Source of the DNA: Mycoavidus cysteinexigens
GTDB lineage: Bacteria > Pseudomonadota > Gammaproteobacteria > Burkholderiales > Burkholderiaceae
DNA: 64,000 bases
Direction: 5' to 3'
Assembly: GCA_031963225.1 (NCBI GenBank)
Contig: JASSUD010000001.1
Span: 23,942 to 87,941, forward strand
Position numbers and translations under genes: made by a program. Under the pieces are notes generated by a model. The model was not told the DNA's origin. It did no database searches and was given only the letters and a program-made list of their open reading frames with translations. Positions 742-44,882 of this stretch are shown here, one piece after another (positions within the stretch are counted from its first letter, which is position 1; every line of letters starts with the position of its first letter).

Positions 742-3700
742 ATGCTGACAGGTACATTTGCTGCAAAGACAAAATCACAAGGTGTATCTCGACAGCAAGA
801 CACCAGCCATTACCCTGCCACAGTAAAAGTAGAAACCTTGCTGCAGTATGCGGATGCAATGCGTGCCAATAATATTGTGCTAGCAACCCAATACGCAAAA
901 GATGCATTGGATTGCGCCCGGTCGCTGCCCCAGAGCTCTCAGGCTGCGCTAGAGGCGATCTATACACGGTATAGCGATTTATTCCAAAGGCTAAACTTAC
1001 CTCAACCAACTGCTTCTGCATCCTCCTCTTCGAGCGGTACCCCTGCAGTCTCTAGACCAAAGCGCGACCCAGCGAGAGCAAAAGTATCTGCGGCGCCCAC
1101 AGACCATATAGCTTCTACTAGCCACTCAGCAAAGCCTAGCGACCTAAAAAAACAGCCTCCCCCTTTTTCTGCTCTCCCTGAGAAATACGCTACGCTGCCG
1201 CCTCCTTACCTAGCTAAAATGCCCACCGTAGCATCAGCTGCTTTAAGCAAAGGGCAGCGGTATCTTGGTAAAGGCGACGCCTATGTTTTACACGGTGAAT
1301 TTGATAAAGCGCGCAGCGCCTATATGCAAGCCGCTATTTATGCCGATACGAAAGCGCAAGCACATCAAAAATTACGTACTTTACCCACCCAAGCAGAACC
1401 TCTAACCGATATATCGGTCACTTCTCGCCTATTAGGGGACTGGTTTAAAAATACGCGCGCACAGGTAATAAACCACTTTAAGCAATATGAACAAGAAAGA
1501 GGGGTACCTCATTGCTTTGACTTAGATACTTCGATTTTCAAAGCGCAGACAGCCTCTTACAGTGAAGCCCATTCGCTGTCTGATATTAAAAATATGCAGC
1601 AGGTAGCGCAATGCTACAACGCACTCCTACTTCCTGCACACCCAGAAAAATTACGGCTCCAAAGTGAGGTATATGCAATAGCACGCCATGCTATTCAAGC
1701 CTTTAGTACATCGACCTTACATGACGCCAGCGAAGTAGCCGAAATTATCCATATAGGCGCGCTAGCCGATCCTGGCCTATATTTCGCTCTAGCCAATAGC
1801 ATGGCAAATGCATTGGATCCAGTTAAAAATCCCATTATGAATAACTGGGTTGCACAAGGCCTAGCTGTAGCCATTCGTAACTATCCATTTGAAATATATC
1901 GCAATGCTTCTGGCTTAGAAAATCTACGCAGGCTGATCGATATTATTCCACCACTCTATGCACGCCTACACCATACTCATATAGAAAAAAATGCGACCCA
2001 GTTACAAATAGCCCTCGCTCCGTTAACTGAATTATTTGATCTTCTAGTGCTAGCAGGAGTCAGCGGCATCGATAAAATGCTGCATACGAATCTAGATAAA
2101 TTATTAGATACCCTAATTGAATATGCAGACCGCAGCTCTGCCTATGATGCACTCGGCCATCAAGCACGCTACACTCAACAAGCACTGGCGCATATTGGAA
2201 ATAATGAAACACTGAAAGAAGCCGTTGCAGGGGGTACGTTTCAATTAGGCGTGGCAATATCTACTTTAGTAAGTGGCATTATTAAACTAGATCCCAGTAA
2301 CTTACCTAAGATCTATCAAAATATAAAAGCACTCATACCTGGCACACTCGCAGATCCTTGGTATATGGCAGCGCGCTATGCCGAAGCATTAGTAAAAACA
2401 CAAGAATGGACGCTTTTTGAGCTATTTGTTAGAAAAAATGAATACGCAACCCATCCCCATTTCTTAAGGAAAATCTGCCTATTATTAGAAGAAATAGCAC
2501 TCACACACCCAAAGGCTAGTGACGGCGCTCAACGCTTATTGACTGAAATCCAAGATACAAAATACTGGGGCAATAATAAAACCGTGCAAAACAGCGCCAC
2601 CCAAGCGCTGATGCGAGTACAAAAACACCTAATACACTCCTTGCAATCCCAACAGGAGGCGAGGGTACCTACGGCTATGCTGGCGGTATGGGATGCATTT
2701 TGGAAAACCCCCTCCACCAATTTATTTTTGACACAAGCCAAATCTGCCCAGCAACAGCTCCAAAACCTACAACAAAAAGCGCCTTCTACCCAATCTGCGC
2801 TGAACGCAACCCAGCTAAAAAACATCCACGCGCAACATTTACAAAGCGCGGGCGACATTCAAGAAGCACAAGCGCTATATGTTCCACTACAAGGCTATAC
2901 CCAAGGGCAAACCGCGCAAGCACAAGATTTGCAAGTATTAGTAGAAACGTTTTTTAAATCCAACAAAAAAGTACTACTACTATTAGGCGCAGCAGGAACC
3001 GGCAAATCCACCTTCAATCGCTACCTAGCCCAAAAAAAACTAGAAGCACACACCGAACTCCAGGACCCAAACCAACCCTTAGTCATATTTATTGAATTAA
3101 GAAACAGCAAAGACCCCCATCGAGACGCCATTAAAAGCTTCCTAAAAGGGCAGGGCTTCACTTCCAAACAAATTCAACAACTACGCACCCAGCAACGCTG
3201 CATCTTTATTTTTGATGGCTACGACGAAATCAAAGAGCGCAATCGTAATTTCTACGCACTCAATGATTTAGCCTCCTGGCCCAACGCCCAATTCATCATA
3301 ACCAGCCGCCCCGAATACCTAGGAATAGGCTACCAACAATATTTTCACCCCGCAGGCAGCCCTGAGCTCTTGCAAGAATGCACCATCGCACCACTTTCCA
3401 AAGCCAGCCAAGCAAGCTACATCGAAAAATACATCGCCCACCACGCTAGCGCATGGAAACTAGATCAATACCAAGAAGCCTTAGCACAACTAGACGCACT
3501 AGAAAAAGAACTAGATCGCCCCGTCGTGCTACGCATGATCCTGCAAGTCTTGCCGCAACTCAACGCCTCATCTAAGCTAACGCTAGGGCAAGTATATGAA
3601 GCCTACCTAACACAATGGTGGGAACGCGCCCATGCCCGCCTAGCTCAAGTTGGCCTCACCGCCCAAGAAGAAGCCGCCAAAATCCTACTAGCCGAAAAAT

Positions 3701-6612
3701 CCGACGACTTCACCCAACACGGCCTCGAATACAGCCAAGACTGCGCCACAGCATTAACCAAAGACGAATTAACCGTAGCACAACGCAGTCCAGAATTTGA
3801 GGGCGCCTACCCCGACACCTACCGAGCCTTCTTCGGAAATGACGAAAAAGCAAGACTCCTACTACTAAACGCCCCCCTGCAACAAGGCGCAGACAAACGC
3901 TACCAATTCACCCATAAATCTATCCAAGAATACCTAGTAGCCCGAGCCATAGTAGAACAAAGCCGAACCAAAGGCTGGAACAAAACCATGCACCGCTCTA
4001 CTACTGCTGTGGTAGAGCCTAAAGTAGACATGTACATGAACCAGCTCAATTTAATAGAGAATCCAGTCATTTTGGATTTTCTAGTAGAGCCGCTCAAGCA
4101 AGACCCTTACTTCAAAAAGCAGGTGTGGAACTGGATACTGGCATCTAGGGTTGAGACCGAGCAGCAGACAGAAGAGCTAACCGAAGAATTTGCGCTTAGT
4201 GCACGTCAGACGCGCATTAAAAAATCACCATTCAGACAAGGTGCTGCTAACGCAGCTACTTTATTGGCAAGAGCAAGAGAATCTTTTAGTGGTAAAGATC
4301 TAAGTGGAGTTCAAATTCCTGGAGCAGATTTAAATAATGGGGTATTTGATAATACTAATTTCACACGCGCCAATTTAGAGAATGTGATTTTTGTAAATGC
4401 ATGGCTGCGCCGTGCAACGTTTGATAAGGCGCAAATGCGAGGGGTGCAGTTTGGTCAGGCTGTTTCTATGTTTGATACGCCAGAAGAAGAGATAAGCCAA
4501 CTAACACCTTATTTCTCCCACAATGAGCTTTATTATTTATTTGCAGAAAATAATCGTATACAGTGCTTTGACAGAGTTCAAAATTACAAAGAAAACGAGT
4601 CAATTCTGGATGACTTTGCAGAAGTCAGCGCTAATACACCACCTATTGCTATGTCTCTCAATAGTGAAAAAATTCTCTTTGTAGGGAAAAATGGGTCTCT
4701 TGAGCACTGGTCATTAGTAGAAAAAGAGCGTGCCACTTCTTTTTATCATACAGACTATATTAACCATATAGCGCTTTGTGAAACCGGCAAATTTGCTGCG
4801 TCTGCAGGCGAGATAGCGCTGAATAAAAAAAGCAAACCTGCTATCACAATAGAAAATAAATACTTTGTTAAAGTTTGGTCAGAAGAAAAAGCAGACAAGT
4901 CTATTTTGGCATTTGAAAGTAGTAACTGTATTACTAGCTTAGCGCTTTGTGCAAAGCTTTCGATTGTCGCTTTTAGCACAAAAAACGAAACCACCATCCA
5001 AGTTCGCTCTTGGGATTCAAATATAGTCTATGAACTCAATAACGAAGCTCAAGTGCGCAGCCTTCTAATTTCAAAAAATGGTAAATGGATTATCGCTGGA
5101 AATGAAAATGGCACGATACATGTTTGGTCTGTGCTAACTAGAAAGCGAGAGCATATATTATCAGGACATATCAAATCAGTTTTAACTCTCGCCATCTTAG
5201 AACAAGATGAGATTCTTGCCTCTGGAGGAGAAGACCAGACAGTTAATTTATGGTACTTGCCTGCAGGTCAATATATATATACATTTACAGGACACACCTA
5301 TCCATTAGAGCGCGTTTCCTTTTCAGAAAATGGACGAAATCTATATTCTATTAGTAAAAAAAGAGTCTATGATAGAGAGAGTGTTAGTGAGTGGCAAAGC
5401 GAAAATAATCAGCTTAAAGAGCAGCCTTATACAGTTAAAAATTGGCGGCTTAATGATATAGATATAAATTTTTCTTCATCTAAAATGTTACAGCATATGC
5501 GATTTGGAATGCTGTCGCCGGATGGGAAATGGATTGCTAGCGCAGATTCAAATAATAATATTTGGCTAAATAAAACAGACCTATCTTCTTCTCAAAAAAT
5601 AGGAACTATAAAAGCACGCAGTGCCCCTATAGAATTTTCATCAGATGCAAAATGGTGTGTGTGGCATGATGAATCATATGATATTGTTTGTTACTCACTA
5701 GAGCGTGCGCGTGTTGAGCATAAATTTAATATTGGACGTCGCTGCAAAATACAGTTTTACCAAGATAATAAAAAAATTAGAGTATTAGAGTGTAAAAAAG
5801 ATAGCTATGATCTATATTCATTTTCCTTAGAGGAAAGGCAAAAATCTCATCTTATTTTTGAACAGACAATCCCTGAGAGTGAAATTGGGTATGTGGAAGC
5901 ATTTTCGTCGAATGCAGAATATCTTTTTTCTACTGAGACTGGTAATGATATTAGACAATGGTCAATTAAAGATCGTGAAATGAAAGTTTTATATTCTCGT
6001 CCGCGCTACAAAAATAGCGATGCATCTAAGATAAAAGTAAAAATTCCTGAAATAGAGCATGGAATTTTTGTTATAAATATAACTCCTTCTCAAAATGCAA
6101 AATGGTTAGCGTTTACAAACGATATATATGATAGTGAAGAGCCTTCTGGAGCAATTGTAAAAGTATGGCTATATTCTTTAGAGAGTAAAAATAAAGGAGT
6201 GGAAAATTTAAAATATTGTTTTGCTACGGATGTCCCACAAAATATTCAATTTACATTCTCACCTGACGAAAAATGGCTTGCGGTTAGTGAACAGAGTCGA
6301 TTGGTACTGCATCCAATTGCCTCCAAAGGGCAGCGAAAAATTATTGAGCATGGTCTAACAGAAGAAATTGAACAGATTATTTGGCAGGCAGACAAAATTC
6401 TAACTTTTGGAAAATATGGTAATGCACGTCTCTGGCAAATAGTATATAGCAACGATTCACCTGAAATAAATGACATTCGCCTAATATGGTCCTTGCCACA
6501 TTCTACATGGACACTAGAGCAAGCATCGATTTCTAAAACGGTTGGATTAGGTGCCCTTAACACTAAGCTTTTTGAAGAATTTGGTGTTCAGGATAAGATT
6601 ATAGAATTGTAA
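742..6612 (+). CDS. Giant STAND/NLR-like NTPase: helical N-region, NACHT NTPase, pentapeptide repeats, WD40/beta-propeller repeats (1956 aa)
   Basis: Uninterrupted ORF with AAGGAAA upstream of the ATG. Walker A GAAGTGKST, Walker B CIFIFDGYDE and NACHT-type IITSRPE lie at nt ~2960-3320. Pentapeptide run ADLNN GVFDN TNFTR ANLEN VIFVN AWLRR ATFDK at nt ~4290-4460. WD40 units NGTIHVWS, GHIKSVLTL..GGEDQTVNLW and GHTYPLERVSFSENG at nt ~5040-5350. Confidence 0.9.
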   Translation: MLTGTFAAKTKSQGVSRQQDTSHYPATVKVETLLQYADAMRANNIVLATQYAKDALDCARSLPQSSQAALEAIYTRYSDLFQRLNLPQPTASASSSSSGTPAVSRPKRDPARAKVSAAPTDHIASTSHSAKPSDLKKQPPPFSALPEKYATLPPPYLAKMPTVASAALSKGQRYLGKGDAYVLHGEFDKARSAYMQAAIYADTKAQAHQKLRTLPTQAEPLTDISVTSRLLGDWFKNTRAQVINHFKQYEQERGVPHCFDLDTSIFKAQTASYSEAHSLSDIKNMQQVAQCYNALLLPAHPEKLRLQSEVYAIARHAIQAFSTSTLHDASEVAEIIHIGALADPGLYFALANSMANALDPVKNPIMNNWVAQGLAVAIRNYPFEIYRNASGLENLRRLIDIIPPLYARLHHTHIEKNATQLQIALAPLTELFDLLVLAGVSGIDKMLHTNLDKLLDTLIEYADRSSAYDALGHQARYTQQALAHIGNNETLKEAVAGGTFQLGVAISTLVSGIIKLDPSNLPKIYQNIKALIPGTLADPWYMAARYAEALVKTQEWTLFELFVRKNEYATHPHFLRKICLLLEEIALTHPKASDGAQRLLTEIQDTKYWGNNKTVQNSATQALMRVQKHLIHSLQSQQEARVPTAMLAVWDAFWKTPSTNLFLTQAKSAQQQLQNLQQKAPSTQSALNATQLKNIHAQHLQSAGDIQEAQALYVPLQGYTQGQTAQAQDLQVLVETFFKSNKKVLLLLGAAGTGKSTFNRYLAQKKLEAHTELQDPNQPLVIFIELRNSKDPHRDAIKSFLKGQGFTSKQIQQLRTQQRCIFIFDGYDEIKERNRNFYALNDLASWPNAQFIITSRPEYLGIGYQQYFHPAGSPELLQECTIAPLSKASQASYIEKYIAHHASAWKLDQYQEALAQLDALEKELDRPVVLRMILQVLPQLNASSKLTLGQVYEAYLTQWWERAHARLAQVGLTAQEEAAKILLAEKSDDFTQHGLEYSQDCATALTKDELTVAQRSPEFEGAYPDTYRAFFGNDEKARLLLLNAPLQQGADKRYQFTHKSIQEYLVARAIVEQSRTKGWNKTMHRSTTAVVEPKVDMYMNQLNLIENPVILDFLVEPLKQDPYFKKQVWNWILASRVETEQQTEELTEEFALSARQTRIKKSPFRQGAANAATLLARARESFSGKDLSGVQIPGADLNNGVFDNTNFTRANLENVIFVNAWLRRATFDKAQMRGVQFGQAVSMFDTPEEEISQLTPYFSHNELYYLFAENNRIQCFDRVQNYKENESILDDFAEVSANTPPIAMSLNSEKILFVGKNGSLEHWSLVEKERATSFYHTDYINHIALCETGKFAASAGEIALNKKSKPAITIENKYFVKVWSEEKADKSILAFESSNCITSLALCAKLSIVAFSTKNETTIQVRSWDSNIVYELNNEAQVRSLLISKNGKWIIAGNENGTIHVWSVLTRKREHILSGHIKSVLTLAILEQDEILASGGEDQTVNLWYLPAGQYIYTFTGHTYPLERVSFSENGRNLYSISKKRVYDRESVSEWQSENNQLKEQPYTVKNWRLNDIDINFSSSKMLQHMRFGMLSPDGKWIASADSNNNIWLNKTDLSSSQKIGTIKARSAPIEFSSDAKWCVWHDESYDIVCYSLERARVEHKFNIGRRCKIQFYQDNKKIRVLECKKDSYDLYSFSLEERQKSHLIFEQTIPESEIGYVEAFSSNAEYLFSTETGNDIRQWSIKDREMKVLYSRPRYKNSDASKIKVKIPEIEHGIFVINITPSQNAKWLAFTNDIYDSEEPSGAIVKVWLYSLESKNKGVENLKYCFATDVPQNIQFTFSPDEKWLAVSEQSRLVLHPIASKGQRKIIEHGLTEEIEQIIWQADKILTFGKYGNARLWQIVYSNDSPEINDIRLIWSLPHSTWTLEQASISKTVGLGALNTKLFEEFGVQDKIIEL

Positions 6613-7410: not shown

Positions 7411-9312
7411 ATGGTCAACCCCTTAGCCACTGAAACGTCATACAGTCCAGCAGCACCTCAGGCTACTACCGGAAACATAAAAAAGGGCGATTCCTTCAAA
7501 GCCCGTTTCGCGCAAGGTCCTTTTGGCCCTTTTATTCCTGCTGCTATCGAAGAGCAGGAAAAAGTTCCTCAAAAAGCAGTTCGCGATCCTTTCATCAGGC
7601 ATCTGACAACCGAGTATTTTGGAGCCGAGTACCACAGCAGTCTTGCGCATATACATGACAAGGCAGTGGCAGAAGCTTTTAGCCCTCCTCGTAAATCCTT
7701 TCTTAGACGCGTAGTGACGGCCCCTTTTGCCGCTTCTACATGGCGCATGAAAATGCTCCCGCCTCTCTCTCCTGAGATATTTATCCGGGGAGTAAAGACA
7801 CTGCCTTCTAGGAAAGAAGAAAAAGCAGAGCCAGCAACAAGCAATAGCCAGGATATGGTGCCGGCCTCACTGGCCGATAAAGTGCAGCTCTTAGAAAACG
7901 TTTCGGACAAACTAGATGCGCTGTTCAGAGAAAATATCCTGAATACCCGTAAGCTCTCTGTAGAAGACCGGAAAAAAGATCTAGATTTAATCAAAGATTA
8001 TCAGCAAAAGATTAGAGCGACTTATACAGCACCTGAGTCTATCGTGAAAAAGCAGGCCGCTTCTGCACCGCCTTTGATGCTAAAAGAGAGTGCATCTCCT
8101 ACTCAAAATTCGGTGGTGCAGACTGCTACTGAAGAAACTAGCTCTTCCCATTCTCGTCGCACTACGGTGTATGAAATTGTAGATGGGGAAGAGGAAGATT
8201 TTGAATGTATAGACACGCTTTATACACCGGGGGCTAATCCTTACGCTACTACCGTACAAGAGATTCTAGATGAAGAAACAGTAGAGTCTCTGGATATGAC
8301 GTATGCATTTTTTAATGCATCAGAAGGTGGGGAGGTTTCATATTTGAATGCCTCAGAAGACCCCTCTGAACAGACATTTTCCGAAGCATGGGCCGTCTTT
8401 AAGGCCACTGCCAAGAGCATTACTGAACATAATCGCCCCGAAGATGGGATAGTACAAAAAATCTGCTTGACCCTTCTTAGTAGCTTAAATAGAGTAGTAA
8501 GCTCTTTATGCATTCCAGGCCTGTCGCTTGTTACGGACATGACTAAATATGTATTTGAACTTCACGCATTGTCTAAGATTCGAGAATGGGAAAACAGGAA
8601 TGCAATTAGAAAAGCATTGATAGAGATTTCGAAACCCATAATAACTTCCTCAGAGGGAGAGGCATTAGATATGAACGCAGTCAGTAATATTAATAGTTTT
8701 ACCACAGAAACAGCCATTAATTTAGCCAATGCTACGGGCGCTGCTATGCAAGTGCATACAGAGGATGTAGCTTCAAAAATTGCTCAGCATACGGAAAAAT
8801 TACAAAAAGATTTAGATGCTGGTACAGTAAAACTACAGAAAGATTTGAATGCTGGTACAGCGAGACTACAAAAAGATTTTAATAACGGTGCCGCCATTCT
8901 CATTGATGGTAATGCCGCCATCATTGGAAAATTGGAAGCCATAGAAGCAAATCAGCGAAGACAGGAAGAACATCAGCGAAAATTAGCACAAGATGTTGCT
9001 CCTCTTTTAAGAGTGCGTAAAACTTCAACTAATTCACTTGGCTCAAACGCTGACTCCGCTATTGGTCTTAATGATGGATCTCCATCTGGCTCTCGTTCTG
9101 TTAGCCCAGTAATAACTGATTCTCATAGTCCAGATTTTATCCATAAAGCTGAAGTGCAAGAGATCGTCGATAAGGCCTTGAAAGCCCAGGAAGAAAAACA
9201 TGCTAAAGAGATTGCTGGGTTAGAAGCTAAAGTGGATCGAACCAATCAACTATTGGAACAGTTTCTCCTTGGGCTACAAGCAAAAAATCAAGCAGCTGCA
9301 CAGGGTAATTAA
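7411..9312 (+). CDS. Family A: hypothetical 633-aa protein with coiled-coil C-terminal half and Ser-rich tail
   Basis: GAGAGAGG RBS. Internal 3x33-bp repeat (KLQKDL-D/N-AGT). Weakly hydrophobic segment ICLTLLSSLNRVVSSLCIPGLSLV. Ser-rich GSRSVSP region. A truncated copy of its 5' end is at 21591-21695. Confidence 0.75.
   Translation: MVNPLATETSYSPAAPQATTGNIKKGDSFKARFAQGPFGPFIPAAIEEQEKVPQKAVRDPFIRHLTTEYFGAEYHSSLAHIHDKAVAEAFSPPRKSFLRRVVTAPFAASTWRMKMLPPLSPEIFIRGVKTLPSRKEEKAEPATSNSQDMVPASLADKVQLLENVSDKLDALFRENILNTRKLSVEDRKKDLDLIKDYQQKIRATYTAPESIVKKQAASAPPLMLKESASPTQNSVVQTATEETSSSHSRRTTVYEIVDGEEEDFECIDTLYTPGANPYATTVQEILDEETVESLDMTYAFFNASEGGEVSYLNASEDPSEQTFSEAWAVFKATAKSITEHNRPEDGIVQKICLTLLSSLNRVVSSLCIPGLSLVTDMTKYVFELHALSKIREWENRNAIRKALIEISKPIITSSEGEALDMNAVSNINSFTTETAINLANATGAAMQVHTEDVASKIAQHTEKLQKDLDAGTVKLQKDLNAGTARLQKDFNNGAAILIDGNAAIIGKLEAIEANQRRQEEHQRKLAQDVAPLLRVRKTSTNSLGSNADSAIGLNDGSPSGSRSVSPVITDSHSPDFIHKAEVQEIVDKALKAQEEKHAKEIAGLEAKVDRTNQLLEQFLLGLQAKNQAAAQGN
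8797..8895 (+). repeat. 3 x 33-bp in-frame tandem repeat inside the family A gene
   Basis: AAATTACAAAAAGATTTAGATGCTGGTACAGTA, AAACTACAGAAAGATTTGAATGCTGGTACAGCG and AGACTACAAAAAGATTTTAATAACGGTGCCGCC. Confidence 0.8.
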
Positions 9313-9936: not shown

Positions 9937-10758
9937 ATGTGCCCTATCGCAATATCTTCAGCTAACCCTCTGTATCAGAGTCGGTTAAATTATCCTACTA
10001 TCGAAGATGATAGGGCAGCTCCTCTGCTACGCACAGCAGAGATTGGCGGATTGCTTGAAATGGAACCGTTATTGGTCATTCATGCACCTATTGAACAAGT
10101 GCATGCGCGCACATTTTCTTTTTCTACGACAACAAATCGGTTACAACCCTATATTGAAAGTCAGGCAAACTGGGATCCAAAAGGTTATCTGGTATGCTGG
10201 TTCTCAGCTGTTTCTTTGGGAATGTCTATACTAATTTTCAGTTTACACTGTATCGAAAAGTATCATGAAAATCATCAAGAGATACTGACTGCTCAGATTA
10301 TCAATATTCTTCTTACCTCGTTCAAGTACCTTCATTTTTTATTTTCCTGCCCTGCCTCTTGTATTAAATGGTCCCAAAAAGCAGCCAGATGGTTGTCGCC
10401 AAATCGCGCTTCAGAGCAGCGCATGGTACTAGCAAGCGCTTCACGCATTGTGCAAAAACCAACGAATTGCTTTTGGCCTACTATTCAATGGTGGGCACGG
10501 CTAGATAATAATGATTATTATTTACATGATGTATTAAGAGTGAGCTCCTTTATAACAGCTACGCTGAGCTTTTTTTTACACCTTATTGAAAAAAAACATG
10601 ATAACCATACGCCAATGCTATGGCTCGAGGGAGCGAACATCTGTCTTAACGTTTTTCTCATCTTGCATGATGTAGCAAGAATAGCTGTACAAGAATGGGG
10701 GCAACCGAGTCTATTGCCGCAGAATGCTATACGGATGACAAACTATCAAACTATCTAG
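9937..10758 (+). CDS. Family C: multi-pass membrane protein with duplicated H-x2-EK-x2-(E/D)NH motif (273 aa)
   Basis: LHCIEKYHENHQEILTAQIINILL and LHLIEKKHDNHTPMLWLEGANICL each sit between hydrophobic helices. C-terminus IRMTNYQTI. Paralogue at 21724-22476 ends IRMANYQTV. Confidence 0.75.
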   Translation: MCPIAISSANPLYQSRLNYPTIEDDRAAPLLRTAEIGGLLEMEPLLVIHAPIEQVHARTFSFSTTTNRLQPYIESQANWDPKGYLVCWFSAVSLGMSILIFSLHCIEKYHENHQEILTAQIINILLTSFKYLHFLFSCPASCIKWSQKAARWLSPNRASEQRMVLASASRIVQKPTNCFWPTIQWWARLDNNDYYLHDVLRVSSFITATLSFFLHLIEKKHDNHTPMLWLEGANICLNVFLILHDVARIAVQEWGQPSLLPQNAIRMTNYQTI

Positions 10759-12056: not shown

Positions 12057-12488
12057 CTAATTCATTTCGTGTTGTTTATGTAATAACTGCATTTTTTGAA
12101 GTCGATTCTCTGCTTCTGTAAGCATAGCTGGTTGTATATGTTCATATACTAGATCCACAGATTTTAAAAATAAAAATGGAAACGCAATAAGCACAATAAA
12201 AATTAAAGCAGGTCCTAGAATTGGAAGTGAAAATACTGTCTCTGGAATAATTCCAATAATAGTCGGAAAGATTATTAAGGCAGTTATGAATGATACAGTC
12301 CAACTTTTAAAGTGGTGATATGGATCTTCATATTTTCTAAGGTTAATTATCCCGTCTTTTAATACCTCTTCCGTGATTATTTCATTATTGGAGATATAAG
12401 GTTCATGCGATAAAAATGAGGTCGTGGTATTCCTCCATACATAATTGCATACAGAAGGAGAGGACCAGTTTGAAGTAAAAGTAAACAC
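12057..12488 (-). CDS. Family D: small two-TM protein, C-terminal tail cut off by an in-frame TAG
   Basis: GTG start, MFTFTSNWSSPSVCNYVWRNTT, AENRLQKMQLLHKQH. After the stop at 12057-12059 the same frame still reads KKSTASSTRRPLLLTA-stop (12005-12056), which is the conserved family tail. Confidence 0.7.
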   Translation of the reverse strand: MFTFTSNWSSPSVCNYVWRNTTTSFLSHEPYISNNEIITEEVLKDGIINLRKYEDPYHHFKSWTVSFITALIIFPTIIGIIPETVFSLPILGPALIFIVLIAFPFLFLKSVDLVYEHIQPAMLTEAENRLQKMQLLHKQHEMN

Positions 12489-12599: not shown

Positions 12600-14117
12600 C
12601 TAGCTCAAGTTACGAAAAATTTTGAACTGTTCAGGTTCTCTTAAGATAGGAGCGATTAACTTACAGTCCAATATGCCTCTTATAGGAGTAATTTTCCATA
12701 TATGCTTTTTTTCCCCTACGATCTGTAATGTATTATGGTCCCAGCTTATATTTTGGATAATTCCTAATAGAGGATCTACCGGTTTTTTCTGGAATGCTCC
12801 AGATTCTGTGGATAGTAATAAGATGGTCGTATTTCCTTCAAGCACAGCAAGCCAGCGTTCACAAGGAGAAAATTTGAATTGAACATTCTGAGCCGGTGTT
12901 AATGCAAAATGGCTTTGGACTCTTGCATGCTTATGGGAGTAAAGCCATATCGTGGCAGTTTGAGCACTGCCTTTGGCATTCATCTCCGCTAAGAGCAGCC
13001 ATTTTCCTTGGGGAGACACTGTGAGCTCGGTTATAGATGTGGGTTTATTTGCTATAGAGGACGCTTTTGAGTCAGTAGATTCGCAAGGCTCTATGCTTTT
13101 TTCAAGTTTGCCTGTTTTAGTCGACCATTGTTTAATGGTTTTTCCGTCTATTACAGTAAAAAAATGTTTTTTATCTGCTGAAAAGGCACTGGATGAAACG
13201 GTGCCTTTAATATGCATCACTTTAGCGGGTTGCGGTTTGATTTCTGCGCGGGTGGGTTCAAATCGTAGGGTTATGCGTTGGTAGGCGGCGTCTTCTGCTT
13301 CCTCTGCTGACGCTAGCATTTCTATTTCTTCTTGCGCTTGCAGCCTTGGCTCATGCACCTGAGGGGATGGGGCTGGCTGAAGCAAACTATTTTTAAGGAG
13401 GTCAGATTGTTCAAATTTATTTTTGGCTAAAATTCCTCTTGCACCTACTGCCCCCAGTGCTATTAGAGCAGTTGCCGAGGTAGTTACCCATATTGGCGCT
13501 ATTAAAACTGTGCCTATCTTCCATATTACACCTTTCAATAGCATACCTTTTAATACCGCAACCTCCCCTGCTGCTGTTGCGATAGTTGCCAAACCAGAAA
13601 TTTCTGCCGCCCTTTCTAGCGAATTAATAAATGCATTTTTCCACGCCAATACCTCAGCTTGCTCCGCACGCAATGCTTTCACTGCGTGTGACGAAAGCAT
13701 TTCTACATGAGGAAGCATAAGATACTGACTCTGTGCGCAAAACGTAAATTCTTCGCATCCTTCCCCTGAAAACTGTTTCACAGGCCCTTCTGAATCAGCA
13801 GGTTTACATATAATTTCTTTTTCCGCATTACGCCAAGCATGCCATTTACCGTCTAGGGATATTTCCTGCGGTTCTATTTCAGGTTCTGGTGCGGGTTTTG
13901 AAACGACGGGGGGCGTTTTAAGGAGCGGTAAGAGGCCGGTATTCAGGTTATTTTCTAATTCAGTGAAAGCAGTGGTGTTGTCTGGTGCTTCTCTGTGCTG
14001 AATTTTTGCCTGTCCTATAAACGTTCCAATGGTGTTTTTCGCTACTCTTTGCTCCATATTGAGCGGAGACGGTGGAGCGTTGGTAGCTTGTACAGAAGAG
14101 GATGGTCCAATATTCAC
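12600..14117 (-). CDS. Family E: WD-like repeat protein with central bilobed hydrophobic segment
   Basis: GTG at 14117 preceded by GGAGAAATA, identical to the starts of the two paralogues. The track start 14204 is an alternative. WD-like units ISLDGKWHAWRN, FSADKKHFFTVIDGKTIKQWS, VSPQGKWLLLAE..TIWLYS, FSPCERWLAVLEG. TM pair GLATIATAAGEVAVLKG..IGTVLIAPIWVTTSATALIALGAVG. Confidence 0.8.
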   Translation of the reverse strand: MNIGPSSSVQATNAPPSPLNMEQRVAKNTIGTFIGQAKIQHREAPDNTTAFTELENNLNTGLLPLLKTPPVVSKPAPEPEIEPQEISLDGKWHAWRNAEKEIICKPADSEGPVKQFSGEGCEEFTFCAQSQYLMLPHVEMLSSHAVKALRAEQAEVLAWKNAFINSLERAAEISGLATIATAAGEVAVLKGMLLKGVIWKIGTVLIAPIWVTTSATALIALGAVGARGILAKNKFEQSDLLKNSLLQPAPSPQVHEPRLQAQEEIEMLASAEEAEDAAYQRITLRFEPTRAEIKPQPAKVMHIKGTVSSSAFSADKKHFFTVIDGKTIKQWSTKTGKLEKSIEPCESTDSKASSIANKPTSITELTVSPQGKWLLLAEMNAKGSAQTATIWLYSHKHARVQSHFALTPAQNVQFKFSPCERWLAVLEGNTTILLLSTESGAFQKKPVDPLLGIIQNISWDHNTLQIVGEKKHIWKITPIRGILDCKLIAPILREPEQFKIFRNLS

Positions 14118-16392: not shown

Positions 16393-16875
16393 TTATGTAG
16401 TGAGAAGCAAAAGCCGTCTCTGAATAGAAGTATGGGAATTTCTGTGAGCATCTATTTTATATTCCGCAGCGAGCCATTCCATTTGTCTGAGTCTATTTCT
16501 TGCTGCATCAATTAATTCTCGTGCTTGTAAAAGTATGATGAATACGGGGGCTGAAAATAAGATTGGCAGCCCAAGCAGTATAAATATAAATATAAGTCCT
16601 CCTATACTTGAGCTTGAAAATACTGTAGGAGGAATTATCAGAAAAGCCGTTGATACGGATATAAAAGAGGCTAATAATGACAAGGTTGATGCGGTATAAG
16701 CCCATGAATTTGTATAGTATTCATTGAGTTTTGCGATGCCATTTTTTAACGCGCTTTCCGTGAGCACTTCATCCTCAGGGATATAGGGGCTATGCGATAT
16801 AAATGAAGACGTTGTATTTCTCCATAGATATTCGCATACAGAAGGTGAATGCCAATGTGAAGTAAAAGTAAACAC
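16393..16875 (-). CDS. Family D: small two-TM protein (160 aa)
   Basis: GTG start 2 nt after the upstream gene's stop. MFTFTSHWHSPSVCEYLWRNTT, hydrophobic pair, ARNRLRQMEWLAAEYK, tail SIQRRLLLLTT. Confidence 0.75.
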   Translation of the reverse strand: MFTFTSHWHSPSVCEYLWRNTTSSFISHSPYIPEDEVLTESALKNGIAKLNEYYTNSWAYTASTLSLLASFISVSTAFLIIPPTVFSSSSIGGLIFIFILLGLPILFSAPVFIILLQARELIDAARNRLRQMEWLAAEYKIDAHRNSHTSIQRRLLLLTT

Positions 16876-16877: not shown

Positions 16878-17372
16878 TTATGCCATTAAATAAAAAGGAT
16901 TGTTTCTAACAGAAGTGTTTGGTGGGTTTTGAAAGTCCATTCTATGTTGTTTAGATAGAAGCTGTACTTGGTGGAGTCGATTATCTGCTTCATTAAGTAA
17001 TTCTGCTACATGTAAAAGTATAATAATTTGAGGTATCCAAAATAAAATTGGCAGCCCAATCAGCACAAATAGAAATAAAAGTATTCCAATATTTGAATGC
17101 ATAAATACTGCGGTAGGGATGGTTATAAAAGCAGTTGGCATAGCTATAAAAGAGGCCAAAGCTGAAAAGCAAGACGTTGTATGAATCCATGAATCTTTAA
17201 GATACTCATTTAGTTGTGTAATGCCATTTTCTAATACACTTTCTGTGAGCACTTCCTCCTCAGAGATATAGGGGGCATGTGATATAAACGAAGAAGTAGT
17301 CTTTCTCCATAGATATTCGCATATAGAAGGTGAAGACCAATGTGAAGTGGGAATAAACACTATTGCACCCAT
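16878..17372 (-). CDS. Family D: small two-TM protein (164 aa)
   Basis: IPTSHWSSPSICEYLWRKTT, hydrophobic pair, ADNRLHQVQLLSKQHR, tail SVRNNPFYLMA. Start at ATG 17372, or the homologous GTG at 17360. Confidence 0.75.
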   Translation of the reverse strand: MGAIVFIPTSHWSSPSICEYLWRKTTSSFISHAPYISEEEVLTESVLENGITQLNEYLKDSWIHTTSCFSALASFIAMPTAFITIPTAVFMHSNIGILLFLFVLIGLPILFWIPQIIILLHVAELLNEADNRLHQVQLLSKQHRMDFQNPPNTSVRNNPFYLMA

Positions 17373-17494: not shown

Positions 17495-18940
17495 TTATGA
17501 AAGCATGCTATATCTTAGGGTTCCGCGTGATAGGGGAGGTATGAGTTGTGCGTGCAGTGCATCCCCCACCGAAATAATTCTCCATACGCGATGGTTTGCG
17601 CCTACAACCTGCAGTTCATTATTTTCCCAGCGTATGTGTTGAATAGGCATTAATGCCGCATCTAAACGTGTGCTTTGAAATTCTCCGGATTCCGTGGTTA
17701 GGTGTAAGAGAGTGTTTCCTCCTTCAAGCACGGCAAGCCAGCGCTCACAGGGAGAGAATTCAAATTGAACGCCATTAGTGGTCGCCAATTCAAAATGGCT
17801 TTGCATTCTTGCGTGTTTACGGGAGTAGAGCCACATTTTGGCGCTGTGGTTGGTGCTTTGGGTATCTACCTCCACTAAGAGCAGCCATTTCCCTTTAGGC
17901 GAAACTTTGAGTTCAGTGATAGAGGTAGGCTTATTGGCTGTAGAAGATACGGCTGCATCAACAGGCTGGCAGGGTTCAATGCTCTTTTCAAGTTTGCCAG
18001 TTTTGGTAGACCATTGTTTAATGGTTTTTTCATCTATGACGGTAAAAAAATGTTTTTTGTCGGCTGAAAAGGCAGTGGAAGAGACATTGCCTTTAATATG
18101 TATGATTCTAGGTGCTTGAGGCTTTATTTCTGCGCGCGTGGGCTCAAAATGCAAGGTTATGCGCTGGTAGATTTCTTTATCTGTGGACGCTTGCGCTAGC
18201 ATTTCTAATTCCTCTTCTGCTTGCGGGCTCTTTTTTTGCTGGGGTTGCGTATTTACAAGAAGTTCTAGCTTTTCATTTTTTTGCTTTTTTAAAAGATTTC
18301 TACTGCTTATGGTTCCTACTACTGCTAGAGCGGTTGCTGGTGCACTTACCCATATCGGCGTTACCAACAGGGTACCTAGTTTGATTGCGAACCCTTTTAA
18401 TAATGCCCCTTGGATAATAGCAATGTCTGCCCCTGCAATTGCTACACTGAAGGAGCCGGATAAAAAAGTCGCTATATTTTTGAAAGTATCTATATCGTTC
18501 AATAACTCCCTTTGCTCCGCCTGCAATACGCTTACTTCTTCCTGCGAAAGGGTTTTTACCTCGGGTCGGATGAGATATTGGCTCTTTGCGCAGAAAGTAA
18601 ACTCTTTACATCCTTCCCCTGCAAACAGTTTCACCGGTCCTTTTGCATAAACCGGCTTGCATATAATGTCTCCTCCTTCATCGCGCCAGGCTAGCCATTT
18701 ACCATCTGGCGATATTTCTTGCTGTCTGAGGTCTGTTGGCTCAGACGGAGGAAATAGCCCTGCTATAAAGTCATCTGCCAGCTCAGTTAGGCTGTCATCA
18801 TTACCTGCGGGCTCTCTTGCTAGAATTCTTTCCCGTCCTAAATAGGTTTCGAAGAAGGTTCTCGCTTCCCGTCGACGCATATGCGCGTCAGTCTGGTGAG
18901 AGCTTGTGGCTTGTACGGAAGAAGAGTTTCCAATATTCAC
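17495..18940 (-). CDS. Family E: WD-like repeat protein with central bilobed hydrophobic segment (481 aa)
   Basis: GGAGAAATA-GTG start. ISPDGKWLAWRDEGG, TM pair SFSVAIAGADIAIIQG..LGTLLVTPIWVSAPATALAVVG, FSADKKHFFTVIDEKTIKQWS, VSPKGKWLLLVE..KMWLYS, FSPCERWLAVLEGG. Confidence 0.85.
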   Translation of the reverse strand: MNIGNSSSVQATSSHQTDAHMRRREARTFFETYLGRERILAREPAGNDDSLTELADDFIAGLFPPSEPTDLRQQEISPDGKWLAWRDEGGDIICKPVYAKGPVKLFAGEGCKEFTFCAKSQYLIRPEVKTLSQEEVSVLQAEQRELLNDIDTFKNIATFLSGSFSVAIAGADIAIIQGALLKGFAIKLGTLLVTPIWVSAPATALAVVGTISSRNLLKKQKNEKLELLVNTQPQQKKSPQAEEELEMLAQASTDKEIYQRITLHFEPTRAEIKPQAPRIIHIKGNVSSTAFSADKKHFFTVIDEKTIKQWSTKTGKLEKSIEPCQPVDAAVSSTANKPTSITELKVSPKGKWLLLVEVDTQSTNHSAKMWLYSRKHARMQSHFELATTNGVQFEFSPCERWLAVLEGGNTLLHLTTESGEFQSTRLDAALMPIQHIRWENNELQVVGANHRVWRIISVGDALHAQLIPPLSRGTLRYSMLS

Positions 18941-21021: not shown

Positions 21022-21330
21022 ATGTATTTTGCTACACCTTTTATATCAGCACACTATGCCGTTATTAATGATCAATTCCATACTGCCAAAATTGACTCAA
21101 CAATTGAACAAAGAGATGGCAGCAGAGTAAAGAGTAATTCTCCCTATCAAAGAGAGAGAATTGCGCAGGAAGAGCCATATTTGCAGAGGGGCATGGCTAC
21201 GGCACTTACTGATCAGGCCCTTCTACTGATCGCATTGATCTGCCTTGCGCCTGTTGCTTTTGTAGCTCCACTTTCCTCCTTATTTTGTATACCGATTCTT
21301 ATTACACTGCTTTTGCTTGCAGAAGTATGA
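21022..21330 (+). CDS. Family B: small protein with bilobed hydrophobic segment (102 aa)
   Basis: GGAGATAGT-ATG. IAQEEPYLQRG, then ALLLIALICLAPVAFVAPLSSLFCIPILITLLLLA. Confidence 0.7.
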   Translation: MYFATPFISAHYAVINDQFHTAKIDSTIEQRDGSRVKSNSPYQRERIAQEEPYLQRGMATALTDQALLLIALICLAPVAFVAPLSSLFCIPILITLLLLAEV

Positions 21331-21723: not shown

Positions 21724-22476
21724 ATGCAGATGAGCCTTATTCCGCTATCTTCAATTTGCCCTCCATATCGTAATCAATCCAATCCTACTATAAATGAAGA
21801 AATAGAAGTCAGACAACCTCTAGTAGATACAGAGCAGGTTGACGAACTACCTACAACGACAGATCAGCTGCTATCTTATATCGAAGAGCGGGTGGATCCA
21901 AAAGGTAATTGGGAGTGTATATTATCAGTGAGCTCTACTGTAATGACTGCGGCTATTCTACTTTTCCATGGTCTTGAAAAATACAATGAAAATCATAAAG
22001 AGATACTGGGCACTCAGATTATTAATATTGTCATTATCACATTTGTTTATGCTAGGAGAGCTTTATACTGCACGGCTTCTTCTGTTAGTTGGTCTAAAAA
22101 AGTGGCTAAATGGTGGCAATCTAGGCGCTCGCCTGAACAAGTCGTAGCAACAGAAAATTTAAATATTACTCCGCGGCCAATTAGTTGTTTTTCATCTGCT
22201 TTTCAATATTTAAAAAATATAGAAAAAATGGATGATTATTTTTATTATGCCCTACAGGCTGGATGTTTTATCATTTTTTTAGAAACTTTCTATTTGCATA
22301 GGATTGAAAAAGATAATGAAAATCATGCATTTATATTGGGGCTTGATATACTCAATGTAGTGTATAGCGGTTTCCTGAGTTGGATTCAAATAAAAAAAAC
22401 TATAGCCGAAAACCGCATACAGCCGAATGTATTGCCGGTGAATAATATACGAATGGCAAACTATCAAACTGTTTAG
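21724..22476 (+). CDS. Family C: multi-pass membrane protein with duplicated H-x2-EK-x2-ENH motif (250 aa)
   Basis: FHGLEKYNENHKEILGTQIINIVI and LHRIEKDNENHAFILGLDILNVVY. Ends IRMANYQTV. The leader (AGAAGAGAAAAATTACTTGTATAAGGAAATATG) resembles that of 9937. Confidence 0.75.
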   Translation: MQMSLIPLSSICPPYRNQSNPTINEEIEVRQPLVDTEQVDELPTTTDQLLSYIEERVDPKGNWECILSVSSTVMTAAILLFHGLEKYNENHKEILGTQIINIVIITFVYARRALYCTASSVSWSKKVAKWWQSRRSPEQVVATENLNITPRPISCFSSAFQYLKNIEKMDDYFYYALQAGCFIIFLETFYLHRIEKDNENHAFILGLDILNVVYSGFLSWIQIKKTIAENRIQPNVLPVNNIRMANYQTV

Positions 22477-23078: not shown

Positions 23079-23546
23079 TTATGCCATGAGTAACATAGGT
23101 CTTTTTCTAATAGAAGCGGTGGTTTCTTTTGCAGAATCAATTTTGCATTTCGCATTGAGTAATCGCATATGGTGAAATCTATTTTCTGCTTCTTCGCGTG
23201 CTTTATCTATATTCGTAAGTATAACTATGAGAGGAGACATAAAAGAAAATGGTATCATAGGCCATAGCAGAAGCAATGAAGAGGTGATTGGAGTTAAAGA
23301 TGAAAATAATATTGCTGTAATGATCCCAGATATGATAAATGCAGTTACAGAGAATATTAAAATATTTTTTAAAAAATGAATAAATGTATAATCGTATTCC
23401 TTTAATTTCTCAATTTTGCTTCGTAATATGTCTTCGGTGATTATTTCATTTTCAGGAAAGTAGGGTCTGGATGCTAAAAGTGGAATCGTAGCCTGTCTCC
23501 ATAGATAATTATGTGGAGAAGACCAATCTGAGGTAAAGGTAAACAT
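23079..23546 (-). CDS. Family D: small two-TM protein (155 aa)
   Basis: ATG start, MFTFTSDWSSPHNYLWRQAT, hydrophobic pair, AENRFHHMRLLNAKCK, tail ASIRKRPMLLMA. Confidence 0.75.
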   Translation of the reverse strand: MFTFTSDWSSPHNYLWRQATIPLLASRPYFPENEIITEDILRSKIEKLKEYDYTFIHFLKNILIFSVTAFIISGIITAILFSSLTPITSSLLLLWPMIPFSFMSPLIVILTNIDKAREEAENRFHHMRLLNAKCKIDSAKETTASIRKRPMLLMA

Positions 23547-23573: not shown

Positions 23574-25070
23574 TTATGAAAGCATGCTAAATCGCACGGA
23601 TCTTTGTGGAAGAGGCGGGATGAGCTGTGGATATAGACTGTTTTCAACAGGAATAATTTTCCATATGCGGTTATCTGCTCCTACAACTTGCAGTTCATTT
23701 TGAACCCAGTGTATGCGCTGAATAGGGGTTAATGGCGGGTCTAGCCGTTTTCTTTGGAATTCTCCAGATTCTGTGGTGAGGCGTAAGAGGGTGTGCCCTC
23801 CTTCAAGTACTGCTAGCGAGCGCTCGCAGGGGGAAAATTCAAATTGAACGGTATTCGTTGTTGTTAATGAAAAATGGCTTTGTATTCTTCCATGCTGACG
23901 GGAGTAGAGCCACATGCTGGCTTTTTTAACAGAATCTTGTGGATGTACTTCTGCTAAGAGTAGCCATTTTCCTCGCGGGGATATTTTAAGTTCGGTTATA
24001 GAGGCGGGTTTATTCGCGACAGAGGGCGTGGCTGTGCTAGTAGGTGGTGCGCAAGGCTCTATGTTTTTTTCAATTTTGCCTGTTTTAGTAGACCATTGTT
24101 TAATGGTTTTTCCGTCTACTACGGTAAAAAAATGTTTTTTATCCGCTGAAAAGACACTGGAAGAAATGGTGCCTTTAATATACATAATTTTAGATGCTTT
24201 CGGCTTTATCGCTTCTCGCGTAGGTTCAAAGTGGAGGGTTATGCGCTGATAGGTGGCCTCTTCTGCAGGCTCTTGCATTTCTATGGTTTCTTCTTGTGCT
24301 TGTTCTTCCTGTTTAGGCGCTTGTGCCGGTTCTGTGGATGGGAGCGGGATGTTTTTAATAAGGTCAGATTTTTCAATTTTATTTTTTATAAAGACCCCTC
24401 CTGTACCAGCTGCTCCTAGCGTTAATAAAACGGTTGCAGAGCTCGTTAGCCATATTGGGGCGATTAAAAGTGTGCCTACTTTTAATAGTGCGCCTTTCCA
24501 TAATATGCCGCTCACTATTGCAAAATCTCCTCCCATTAGTAAGAAACTCGTAATAGTGGATGCCAGAGCTGCCGGGCGTGTAAAGTCAAGGTTTGCATTT
24601 TTTTTCCTCAACAACTCCATTTGCTCTGCAAAAAATGCTTTCATTTCTTGTGAGGACAGCATTTCTACCTGGGGGATCATGAGATATTGACTCTGTGGAC
24701 AAAAGCTAAACTCTTCGCATTGCTCTCCTAGAAAGCGTTTTACAGGCCCTTCTGTGTTAGCTGGTTTCCATAAAATTTCTTGTTCTGCATTACGCCAGGC
24801 GTGCCATTTGCCATCTAGTGAAGTTTCCTGGGGCTCTATCTCGGGCTCTGTAGGTGGTATGACTTCTGCAGTATTCACAAACGGTAGGATGTTTTCTACC
24901 AGATTCGTTTGCAATTCAACGAAATTTTGCTTACCTGGTGCTTCTCTTTGTTGAATTTCAGTACGTCCCACACACGTATGGATGCGGTTTGTGATTTCCC
25001 TCTGCGTTATATTGAGTAGAGGTTGTTGAGAACTGCTGGCTTGCACGGAAGAAGAGTTTCCAATATTCAC
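23574..25070 (-). CDS. Family E: WD-like repeat protein with central bilobed hydrophobic segment (498 aa)
   Basis: GGAGAAATA-GTG start. TSLDGKWHAWRN, TM pair ALASTITSFLLMGGDFAIVSG..VGTLLIAPIWLTSSATVLLTLGAAG, FSADKKHFFTVVDGKTIKQWS, ISPRGKWLLLAE..SMWLYS, FSPCERSLAVLEGG. Confidence 0.85.
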   Translation of the reverse strand: MNIGNSSSVQASSSQQPLLNITQREITNRIHTCVGRTEIQQREAPGKQNFVELQTNLVENILPFVNTAEVIPPTEPEIEPQETSLDGKWHAWRNAEQEILWKPANTEGPVKRFLGEQCEEFSFCPQSQYLMIPQVEMLSSQEMKAFFAEQMELLRKKNANLDFTRPAALASTITSFLLMGGDFAIVSGILWKGALLKVGTLLIAPIWLTSSATVLLTLGAAGTGGVFIKNKIEKSDLIKNIPLPSTEPAQAPKQEEQAQEETIEMQEPAEEATYQRITLHFEPTREAIKPKASKIMYIKGTISSSVFSADKKHFFTVVDGKTIKQWSTKTGKIEKNIEPCAPPTSTATPSVANKPASITELKISPRGKWLLLAEVHPQDSVKKASMWLYSRQHGRIQSHFSLTTTNTVQFEFSPCERSLAVLEGGHTLLRLTTESGEFQRKRLDPPLTPIQRIHWVQNELQVVGADNRIWKIIPVENSLYPQLIPPLPQRSVRFSMLS

Positions 25071-44836: not shown

Positions 44837-44882
44837 GTATTATTTCAACCGCATGCTTCCAAGAAATAGGACCGTACGTCTC

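Follow-up and report, generated by a model that had tools for sequence, protein, structure and literature searches.

The window analysed here is a stretch of 64,000 nucleotides (nt) from Mycoavidus cysteinexigens (assembly GCA_031963225.1, contig JASSUD010000001.1, positions 23,942-87,941, forward strand); it encodes a NACHT protein of 1956 amino acids (aa), here called the giant, and, 6, 11, and 17 kb downstream on the minus strand, three paralogous proteins E1, E2, and E3 (family E) that are membrane proteins by prediction. An earlier reading of this DNA (the original prediction) had proposed that the C-terminus of the giant and the C-termini of the family E paralogues, 6-18 kb away, are built from the same four-blade module; these distances are correct, and the comparisons presented below indicate that giant and family E share a homologous beta-propeller along its whole length. 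The giant combines an alpha-solenoid (ARM-like), a NACHT domain, pentapeptide repeats, a WD40 propeller (propeller 1), a further propeller (propeller 2), and a short tail, in this order; its features, in window positions, are as follows.

742-6612, plus strand: giant STAND protein, single open reading frame (ORF), 1956 aa (translation, Pfam)
1651-2334, plus strand: ARM-like alpha-solenoid repeats, aa 304-531 (Pfam PF23948, ARM_5, 100 bits, expect value E 1.4e-28)
2971-3441, plus strand: NACHT NTPase, aa 744-900 (Pfam PF05729, 52.6 bits, cut-off 26.7)
4300-4461, plus strand: pentapeptide repeats, aa 1187-1240 (Pfam PF00805, 29 bits; also PF13599)
4537-5466, plus strand: propeller 1, canonical WD40 repeats, approximately aa 1266-1575 (Pfam WD40/propeller families over aa 1266-1612)
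5503-6492, plus strand: propeller 2, aa 1588-1917, seven predicted blades (AlphaFold2, Foldseek, hhalign)
5890-6492, plus strand: blades 4-7 of propeller 2, the four-blade module of the original prediction (BLASTP, profile built from family E only)

The NACHT domain, the Walker A (GAAGTGKST) and Walker B (IFIFDGYDE) motifs read from the translation, and the C-terminal repeat region identify the giant, at the level of sequence, as a STAND/NLR-type protein. Its order of solenoid, NACHT, pentapeptide, and WD40 domains in Pfam is that of a family already described in Mortierellomycete fungi and Mycoavidus. According to Ciach et al., the NACHT-PPR-WD40 NLRs of Mortierellomycota are common to Mycoavidus at 45-50% identity, which these authors read as horizontal transfer (10.1101/2021.12.02.471044); the ARM-like region of the giant corresponds to the long alpha-solenoid N-terminus that Wojciechowski et al. 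attribute to Mortierellomycete NLRs with homologues mainly in Mycoavidus (10.1101/2022.03.16.484565). The protein type, assigned here by domain order, is therefore already known and belongs to a family shared with fungal hosts, and the closest relatives of the giant all come from Mycoavidus-titled assemblies; what distinguishes it is a second, distinct propeller and its paralogy with membrane proteins, neither of which is mentioned in the available parts of these two sources (10.1101/2021.12.02.471044; 10.1101/2022.03.16.484565). The canonical WD40 match of the giant in Pfam (70.6 bits) and its other Pfam WD40 matches fall in propeller 1, not in propeller 2; propeller 1, in turn, is unrelated to family E beyond generic WD40 similarity, with profiles of family E scoring at most 2.7 bits there.

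The three family E genes and their parts are the following.

12600-14117, minus strand: E1, likely start GTG at 14117, 505 aa (longest ORF from 14204, 534 aa)
12651-13283, minus strand: E1 C-terminal propeller part, end of blade 3 and blades 4-7 (BLASTP 30%, E 2e-12)
13419-13598, minus strand: E1 predicted two-helix hydrophobic hairpin (Kyte-Doolittle peaks 1.5-1.8; conserved in the family)
17495-18940, minus strand: E2, 481 aa (ORF; identical to P0003; structure model)
17540-18169, minus strand: E2 C-terminal propeller part, aa 258-467 (AlphaFold2, predicted local distance difference test score, pLDDT, 83-92; BLASTP E 1e-11)
18305-18484, minus strand: E2 predicted hydrophobic hairpin, approximately aa 153-212 (hydropathy)
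18551-18727, minus strand: E2 N-terminal propeller part, aa 72-130, blade 2 and first strands of blade 3 (AlphaFold2, BLASTP)
23574-25070, minus strand: E3, 498 aa (ORF; BLASTP E 1e-10; identical to P0002)
23616-24251, minus strand: E3 C-terminal part (hydropathy, BLASTP)
24387-24578 (approximate), minus strand: E3 hairpin (hydropathy, BLASTP)
24657-24836 (approximate), minus strand: E3 N-terminal part (hydropathy, BLASTP)

E1 shares 54% identity with each of E2 and E3, and all three carry a central, two-lobed hydrophobic region of approximately 60 aa in hydropathy plots, in agreement with the earlier view of three membrane-anchored paralogues, as far as prediction goes. The GTG at position 14117 of E1 stands in the same context, AGGAGAAATA-GTG-AATATTGGA, as the start of E2, and other family members start with MNIG or MNVG; starting from the longest-ORF ATG at 14204 would put 29 further, hydrophobic residues at the N-terminus. 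Judging from these start contexts, E1 probably has 505 aa and lacks an N-terminal hydrophobic segment, and the segment, considered as a signal anchor, was dismissed as a product of the longest-ORF start. Long antisense ORFs on the plus strand lie inside the E genes (18183-18650, 24253-24690, and 12973-13284); their apparent ratio of nonsynonymous to synonymous divergence (dN/dS) of 0.5-0.64 suggests that they are not genes, and their conservation between strains merely follows that of the E genes.

The similarity that links giant and family E is specific. The segment 5890-6480 of the window encodes giant aa 1717-1913; in BLASTP, giant aa 1720-1900 aligned with the C-termini of E1 (30% identity, E 2e-12), E2 (26%, E 1e-11), and E3 (26%, E 1e-10), and the four blade-by-blade pairings quoted in the original prediction were all reproduced in these alignments. 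A non-circular control against the generic WD40 signal was provided by a hidden Markov model (HMM) built from five E-family C-termini only. It recognized one domain in the giant, aa 1719-1912, with 59.5 bits (independent E 1.6e-20); elsewhere in the giant, the canonical WD40 region included, it gave at most 1.7 bits, and on approximately 110 generic WD40 proteins, the top matches of an exhaustive profile search of 1.84 billion representatives, the maximum was 31.3 bits, mostly at most 21. Among all ORFs of at least 60 aa in the window and four related loci, matches to this HMM were confined to E proteins and orthologues of the giant. Generic WD40 resemblance, compositional bias, or chance could be invoked because Pfam gives the E proteins weak, sub-threshold matches of WD40 type (18.8 vs. 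27 bits; other propeller families also remain below threshold), and because the motif S-P-D-G-K-W recurs across many blades; yet such resemblance does not account for 59.5 bits over four collinear blades when the best generic WD40 protein reaches 31 and the canonical WD40 region of the giant itself at most 1.7, nor for the profile-profile match of giants and E-like proteins described below (hhalign, E 1.8e-35). With the E-only HMM, the HMM of the N-terminal parts with its own controls (see below), and hhalign in agreement, this explanation is refuted and retains practically no probability. The alignments, far above the generic WD40 level as the proposed pairwise and profile comparison was meant to establish, thus argue for specific homology well beyond generic WD40 resemblance; the residues that are invariant between giants and E-like proteins are the core W/F/S/P positions.

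The same unit was followed through related genomes and protein databases. A genome scan found six loci, all in metagenome-assembled genomes (MAGs) titled Mycoavidus cysteinexigens, from isolates BRE-REB-025A, BRE-AM1000, and BRE-AD086; REB-025A, AM1000, and AD086 each have an E gene and an orthologue of the giant, whose terminal region is 64, 59, and 43% identical, respectively. Family E was represented by only five clusters among 5.8 billion proteins, and the profile search of 1.84 billion representatives gave specific matches only to giants and E-like proteins; it recovered further giants and the divergent E-like proteins P0009, P0010, P0012, and P0027, which have approximately 500 aa and a central hydrophobic segment. 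The specific matches that were traced lie in assemblies of the GCA_0319630xx/0319634xx series, three of them titled Mycoavidus cysteinexigens MAGs and the rest in the same accession series; the traced divergent members are P0013 (GCA_031963415), P0010 (GCA_031963445), and P0012 (GCA_031963035). A tblastn search of plasmids gave no match. A review credits Amses et al. 2023 with Mycoavidus genomes obtained from hosts in the Mortierellaceae (PMC13315312). As far as the databases searched show, the module appears to be restricted to Burkholderia-related endosymbionts of Mortierella fungi.

Two of the recovered NACHT proteins differ in architecture from the giant. P0015 (1785 aa, 33% identical to the giants) has a TPR-like N-terminus followed by NACHT, pentapeptide, and WD40 domains and the same terminal propeller; in P0013, an ARM-like solenoid, NACHT, and pentapeptide repeats are followed directly by an E-type unit with a helical insert, without a hydrophobic hairpin and without a canonical WD40 propeller. 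The P0013 gene (locus L011, 10001-14668, GCA_031963415) lies approximately 3 kb from Hrp-type type III secretion genes (L011 16684-24346) that encode FliP/SctR, SctS, SctQ, HpaP, FHIPEP/SctV, and SctU.

The homologous unit is larger than the four blades originally proposed. A second, collinear BLASTP match connects giant aa 1629-1669 with the N-terminal part of E2 (E 2e-5), and a 12-sequence alignment extends homology from LSPDGKWIASAD (approximately aa 1590) to LIWSLP (approximately aa 1925) of the giant; in this alignment the E-like proteins carry an insertion of approximately 130 aa after FTFCAKSQYLIRP that is absent from the Mycoavidus giants. An HMM of eight E-like N-terminal parts matched the window giant at aa 1587-1677 with 46.4 bits and three other Mycoavidus giants at the equivalent place with 44-49 bits; its best generic WD40 control scored 32 bits. 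In hhalign, five giants and eight E-like proteins matched across the insert with 99.93% probability over 304 columns (E as given above), spanning columns 14-335 of the giant profile and 59-493 of the E-like profile; similarly, P0013 aa 1092-1533 aligns with aa 1582-1952 of the AM1000 giant. The AlphaFold2 model of giant aa 1580-1956 (pLDDT 76, predicted template-modelling score 0.74) contains 28 strands in seven groups of four, which place the blades of propeller 2 at aa 1588-1622, 1631-1662, 1668-1711, 1717-1752, 1776-1828, 1836-1868, and 1876-1917; Foldseek matched this model to seven-bladed WD40 propellers (RbBP5, Swd1, nvWrap-T) over 330-350 columns with template-modelling (TM) scores up to 0.70. 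In sequence terms, propeller 2 is homologous to the family E proteins along its whole length. The homology claimed in the original prediction therefore holds, and the size of its unit does not: the shared element is a whole seven-bladed propeller, of which the four blades are blades 4-7.

The structure predictions that had been suggested as a check, carried out for the giant C-terminus and for E2, yielded seven blades in the former and beta-structured parts on both sides of the insert in the latter; the models agree with rings of four-stranded blades, seven in the giant and six, contributed by the two halves of the protein, in E2. In E2, strands at aa 74-130 have pLDDT 77-92, one blade and one long and one short strand precede the insert, and two strands and then four blades follow it. 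The insertion itself (approximately 130 aa, aa 131-257) is flanked by helices, with a helix at aa 133-163 and a low-confidence stretch at aa 154-254; pLDDT of the E2 model is 65 overall and 77-92 in its beta parts, and Foldseek alignments of E2 with WDR4 and WDR5 (400-440 columns) span both halves. Family E proteins are thus modelled as stand-alone propellers whose blade 3 is interrupted by helical stalks and a hydrophobic hairpin. The predicted hairpin is present in all E-like proteins, with peaks at aa 156-212 in E2 and equivalents in E1, E3, P0005, P0009, P0010, P0012, and P0027; since it is inserted within a blade, both propeller halves should lie on one side of the membrane and fold as one domain. 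E1-E3 and the AD086 orthologue have N-terminal helices in place of blade 1, which the divergent E-like proteins keep. The original prediction had also considered a heteromeric propeller, in which four-blade modules of different proteins combine to achieve closure. This idea follows solely from the earlier view that just four blades are shared; it is not needed when every one of the proteins is predicted to form an essentially complete propeller by itself, with seven contiguous blades in the terminal propeller of the giant, further blades contributed by the N-terminal part of the E proteins, and all seven present in divergent E-like proteins, and it is considered highly improbable. Compared with canonical seven-bladed WD40 propellers (WDR5, RbBP5/Swd1, Thermomonospora WD40 PDB 5yzv), the predicted fold is alike (Foldseek E 1e-9 to 1e-11, TM 0.65-0.70); the differences are an identity of only 9-17% between the giant/E propellers and the listed PDB matches, and, in family E, the predicted membrane hairpin inside a blade.

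To our knowledge, no example of a membrane hairpin inserted inside a propeller blade has been described. The arrangement of giant and E proteins, which the original prediction did not know to be described, was not found described in literature searches on Mycoavidus with NACHT or WD40 and on beta-propellers split by a transmembrane hairpin either.

In a distance-based neighbour-joining tree covering blades 3-7 (219 columns, 500 bootstraps, support by bipartition), the propellers of the five WD40-bearing giants formed one clade (99-100%) and the Mycoavidus-group E proteins a separate one (100%), within which the divergence of E1, E2, and E3 followed the separation from strain AD086 (81% support). 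Identity between giants and E-like proteins is 18-31%; the window giant is 22-26% identical to its own E proteins and 21-31% identical to E-like proteins of other lineages. Low identity and separate clades indicate an old duplication; the split of giant and E propellers predates the divergence of the sampled Mycoavidus lineages, with no sign of later exchange. Whether the giant acquired the module from family E or the reverse had been raised as a question for phylogeny; neither event was recent. A recent domain transfer or gene conversion between giant and family E in this genome might be suspected from their distance of 6-18 kb and from the mosaic structure of the propeller half of the giant (see below), but it is barely credible when the two propeller types are separated by clades of 99-100% support, and the window giant is no closer to its own E proteins than to those of other lineages. 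The P0013 unit fell outside the clade of the other giants, and a grouping of all six NACHT proteins had 1% support; either the propeller has thus joined NACHT on two or more occasions, or an already inserted stalk gained or lost its hairpin. The P0013 fusion suggests that the propeller changed between STAND and stand-alone contexts more than once.

The giant gene itself is a mosaic. Synonymous divergence (dS) was calculated by the Nei-Gojobori/Jukes-Cantor method, in which values near or above 1 are close to saturation. Giant aa 1-1000 are 86-100% identical to their counterparts in REB-025A and AM1000, with dS at background (0.15-0.20) and a guanine-plus-cytosine (GC) content of approximately 0.46-0.50; 3' of a breakpoint, identity falls to 43-79%, dS rises to 0.4-2, dN/dS is 0.15-0.46, and GC is approximately 0.37. 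The step lies at approximately aa 1220 in comparison with REB-025A and at approximately aa 1100 with AM1000 (window approximately 4000-4500), and such differing breakpoints point to repeated recombination that imported deeply diverged propeller alleles. In the propeller half (approximately aa 1250-1956), dS against REB-025A and AM1000 is 0.8-1.0, close to the saturation limit and approximately five times that of the E orthologues; in the same strain pairs, E2 and E3 orthologues show background dS of 0.15-0.18, and ThiC 0.19. These patterns suggest that the sensor end of the giant has diversified by exchange rather than by positive selection on point mutations. Repeat shuffling of the fungal HET-E type was rejected as a cause of the deep divergence, since the giant gene lacks suitable internal DNA repeats; a search for such repeats found only one weak 30-nt pair.

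Giant and E genes lie in or next to a region of low GC (0.36-0.43) and orphan genes at 4-31 kb; the housekeeping genes that follow at 33-64 kb (ThiC, GlnA, UvrC, CysS, TilS) indicate that the window is chromosomal. The island proper (7411-30664) consists of orphan paralogue families with no Pfam match above threshold and N-termini rich in S/T/P/N/Q; it is syntenic but rearranged in REB-025A. Downstream of each Mycoavidus-group E gene, 27-122 nt away and on the same strand, one or two genes encode hairpin-membrane proteins of approximately 145-177 aa, most of which start with MFTFTS(H/D/N)WSSPS; the arrangement resembles a conserved gene pair or an operon. The divergent E-like proteins P0010 and P0012 have no hairpin-membrane neighbour of this type at their loci. 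The neighbouring features are listed below.

7411-9312, 25409-27436, 29492-30664: coiled-coil and hairpin-membrane proteins
9937-10758, 21724-22476: multi-pass proteins, 250-273 aa
9446-9826, 21022-21330: small proteins, 102-126 aa
11399-11932, 12057-12488, 16393-16875, 16878-17372, 23079-23546, minus strand: hairpin-membrane genes after E genes
L001 11571-12065, L004 11576-12554, L009 4024-4515, L010 10622-11113: hairpin-membrane genes after E genes at other loci

Two coiled-coil genes contain in-frame tandem repeats, at 26070-26505 (96 nt x 4.6, 85% matches), encoding repeats of the HTDEIKQDLRTGATALNELT type, and at 8796-8883 (33 nt x 2.7). A second low-GC islet (0.38) at 42308-46133, inside the housekeeping region (GC 0.45-0.51), contains two orphan ORFs (842 and 344 aa), neither of which matched Pfam or NCBIfam. 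In REB-025A, the same island encodes a 534-aa coiled-coil and propeller protein with DGKW blades (L004 4700-6304, minus strand); its last blade is similar by eye, and its candidacy as a further member of the giant/E module was rejected with 5.8 bits in the HMM of the C-terminal module and a weak 17.4 bits in that of the N-terminal part. REB-025A also has large ankyrin-repeat proteins (L004 961-3939, plus strand; L010 11439-18270) that were not seen at the corresponding place in the window.

Taken at a probability of approximately 0.75, the preferred reading is that giant and family E resemble each other by common descent of a whole beta-propeller that was shuffled between two protein contexts in the Mycoavidus lineage. 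The propeller would then be a protein-binding platform, a role proposed with lower confidence; in the giant, propeller 2 may constitute the distal repeat or sensor end that controls NACHT oligomerisation, and in family E the same kind of platform may be tethered at the membrane surface. With approximately 25% identity between them, the two kinds of propeller probably have related but distinct binding partners. For the E proteins, secretion and insertion into a host membrane in the manner of Inc-type effectors is conceivable from the gene neighbourhood, at somewhat less than even odds. The leaning toward secretion derives from the absence of a signal peptide, the serine-rich N-termini of the E proteins (MNIGNSSSVQ...), the low GC and the orphan hairpin-membrane and coiled-coil families of the island (with ankyrin proteins in REB-025A), the position of P0013 beside Hrp-type type III secretion genes, and the secretion systems of the genus; Mycoavidus reportedly encodes those of types II, III, and IV (PMC5877345). 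In a crude composition test, island N-termini had an S/T/P/N/Q fraction of 0.42, compared to 0.29 on the housekeeping side (p = 4e-4).

Several points weigh against this picture. The closure of the E1-E3 propellers is a model prediction in which helices replace blade 1; the insert of E2 is modelled with low confidence; and the structure models derive from shallow alignments of 6 and 12 sequences (pLDDT 65 and 76). Hydropathy is the sole basis for predicting the membrane hairpin, whose peaks in E1-E3 are only moderate (1.5-1.8). The tree was computed from distances over a short alignment and leaves the deep branches unresolved (20-53% support). Secretion and host-membrane insertion are read from genomic context only; the composition test used longest-ORF start codons, which may be wrong for some control genes; and a location in the bacterial inner membrane with a cytoplasmic propeller would be equally compatible with the predicted topology.

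The latter location belongs to an account in which all roles are bacterial: the giant would be a cytoplasmic STAND sensor, similar to anti-phage NLR-like proteins, the E proteins inner-membrane proteins with cytoplasmic propellers, and none of them would be secreted. NACHT proteins with repeat sensors are widespread among bacterial defence genes, and the absence of a signal peptide on the E proteins, together with a K/R-rich flank after the hairpin, fits a location of both protein ends in the bacterial cytoplasm. This account is nevertheless unlikely: neither the giant nor E2 found a family match among the PADLOC defence models; the neighbours are lineage-specific hairpin-membrane, coiled-coil, and, in REB-025A, ankyrin proteins that are typical of host-directed repertoires; and the family of the giant is shared with fungal hosts (10.1101/2021.12.02.471044; 10.1101/2022.03.16.484565). 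A functional coupling, in which giant and E proteins share a ligand or one is decoy or bait for the other, as in an NLR that carries a copy of a guarded protein, is quite unlikely. Giant and E proteins do occur together in all four sampled close Mycoavidus lineages, their genes share one island in the window and in REB-025A, and the NACHT/E-type fusion P0013 gives a hint, in Rosetta-stone style, of joint action; but the identity of 18-31% with invariant residues confined to the W/F/S/P core, the location of the AD086 genes on different contigs (29 and 51 kb), so that linkage is not conserved, and the absence of co-divergence (dS 0.8-1.0, close to saturation, in the propeller half of the giant vs. 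0.15-0.18 in E2 and E3) oppose it. The discordant synonymous divergence in particular argues against tight co-evolution on one shared ligand. Very unlikely as well is the possibility that E proteins are membrane-tethered mimics (sensor-domain decoys) of the NLR propeller that intercept its ligand, or engage the NLR, at the host membrane; if true, NLR signalling of host or symbiont would be modulated by the E proteins, with P0013 as their fused form, either ancestral or derived.

The common-descent reading can be set beside known systems. Family E resembles the chlamydial Inc proteins in its central bilobed hydrophobic region of approximately 60 aa, soluble parts predicted on the same side, lack of a signal peptide, and clustered lineage-specific paralogous gene families; it differs in that there is no sequence relationship and that its soluble parts form one predicted beta-propeller, not coiled coils. 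As in plant NLRs with integrated decoys (RRS1-WRKY, RGA5-HMA), an NLR-type protein carries a domain that also occurs in separate proteins of the genome; here, however, it is the repeat or sensor propeller itself that is shared, and the organism is a bacterium; E proteins as targets are an analogy only. Amyloid-motif pairs (fungal NWD2/HET-S; bacterial BASS/Bell) likewise consist of a STAND protein and a nearby membrane-directed protein with a homologous segment; this segment is a motif of approximately 20-40 aa at the N-terminus of the NLR and the C-terminus of its partner, whereas giant and family E share a folded propeller of approximately 330 aa at the C-terminus of the NLR. BLASTP found no significant N-terminal similarity of the amyloid-pair kind between the giant and the E proteins.

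Paralogous domain sharing within one genome is common, and if giant and E proteins are functionally unrelated, the case would amount to ordinary domain shuffling in an effector-like island. What is new is a family, previously unannotated and restricted to this clade, of propeller proteins split by a predicted hairpin, whose propeller has a common origin with that of an NLR giant of known type; the propeller of this clade exists in two forms, as the terminal repeat domain of an NLR-like giant and as the soluble part of a hairpin-anchored family, and a membrane hairpin inside a propeller blade is an unusual protein architecture. The setting is relevant, since the NLR family is common to endosymbiont and fungal host, and the association of Mycoavidus with Mortierella is one of few tractable bacterium-fungus endosymbioses; how NLR-like proteins act in fungal immunity and in keeping symbionts in check is an open question (PMC5658179; 10.1101/2021.12.02.471044). 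A propeller 2 construct and insert-free E propellers suggest themselves as reagents for asking whether the two forms bind the same fungal or bacterial partner.

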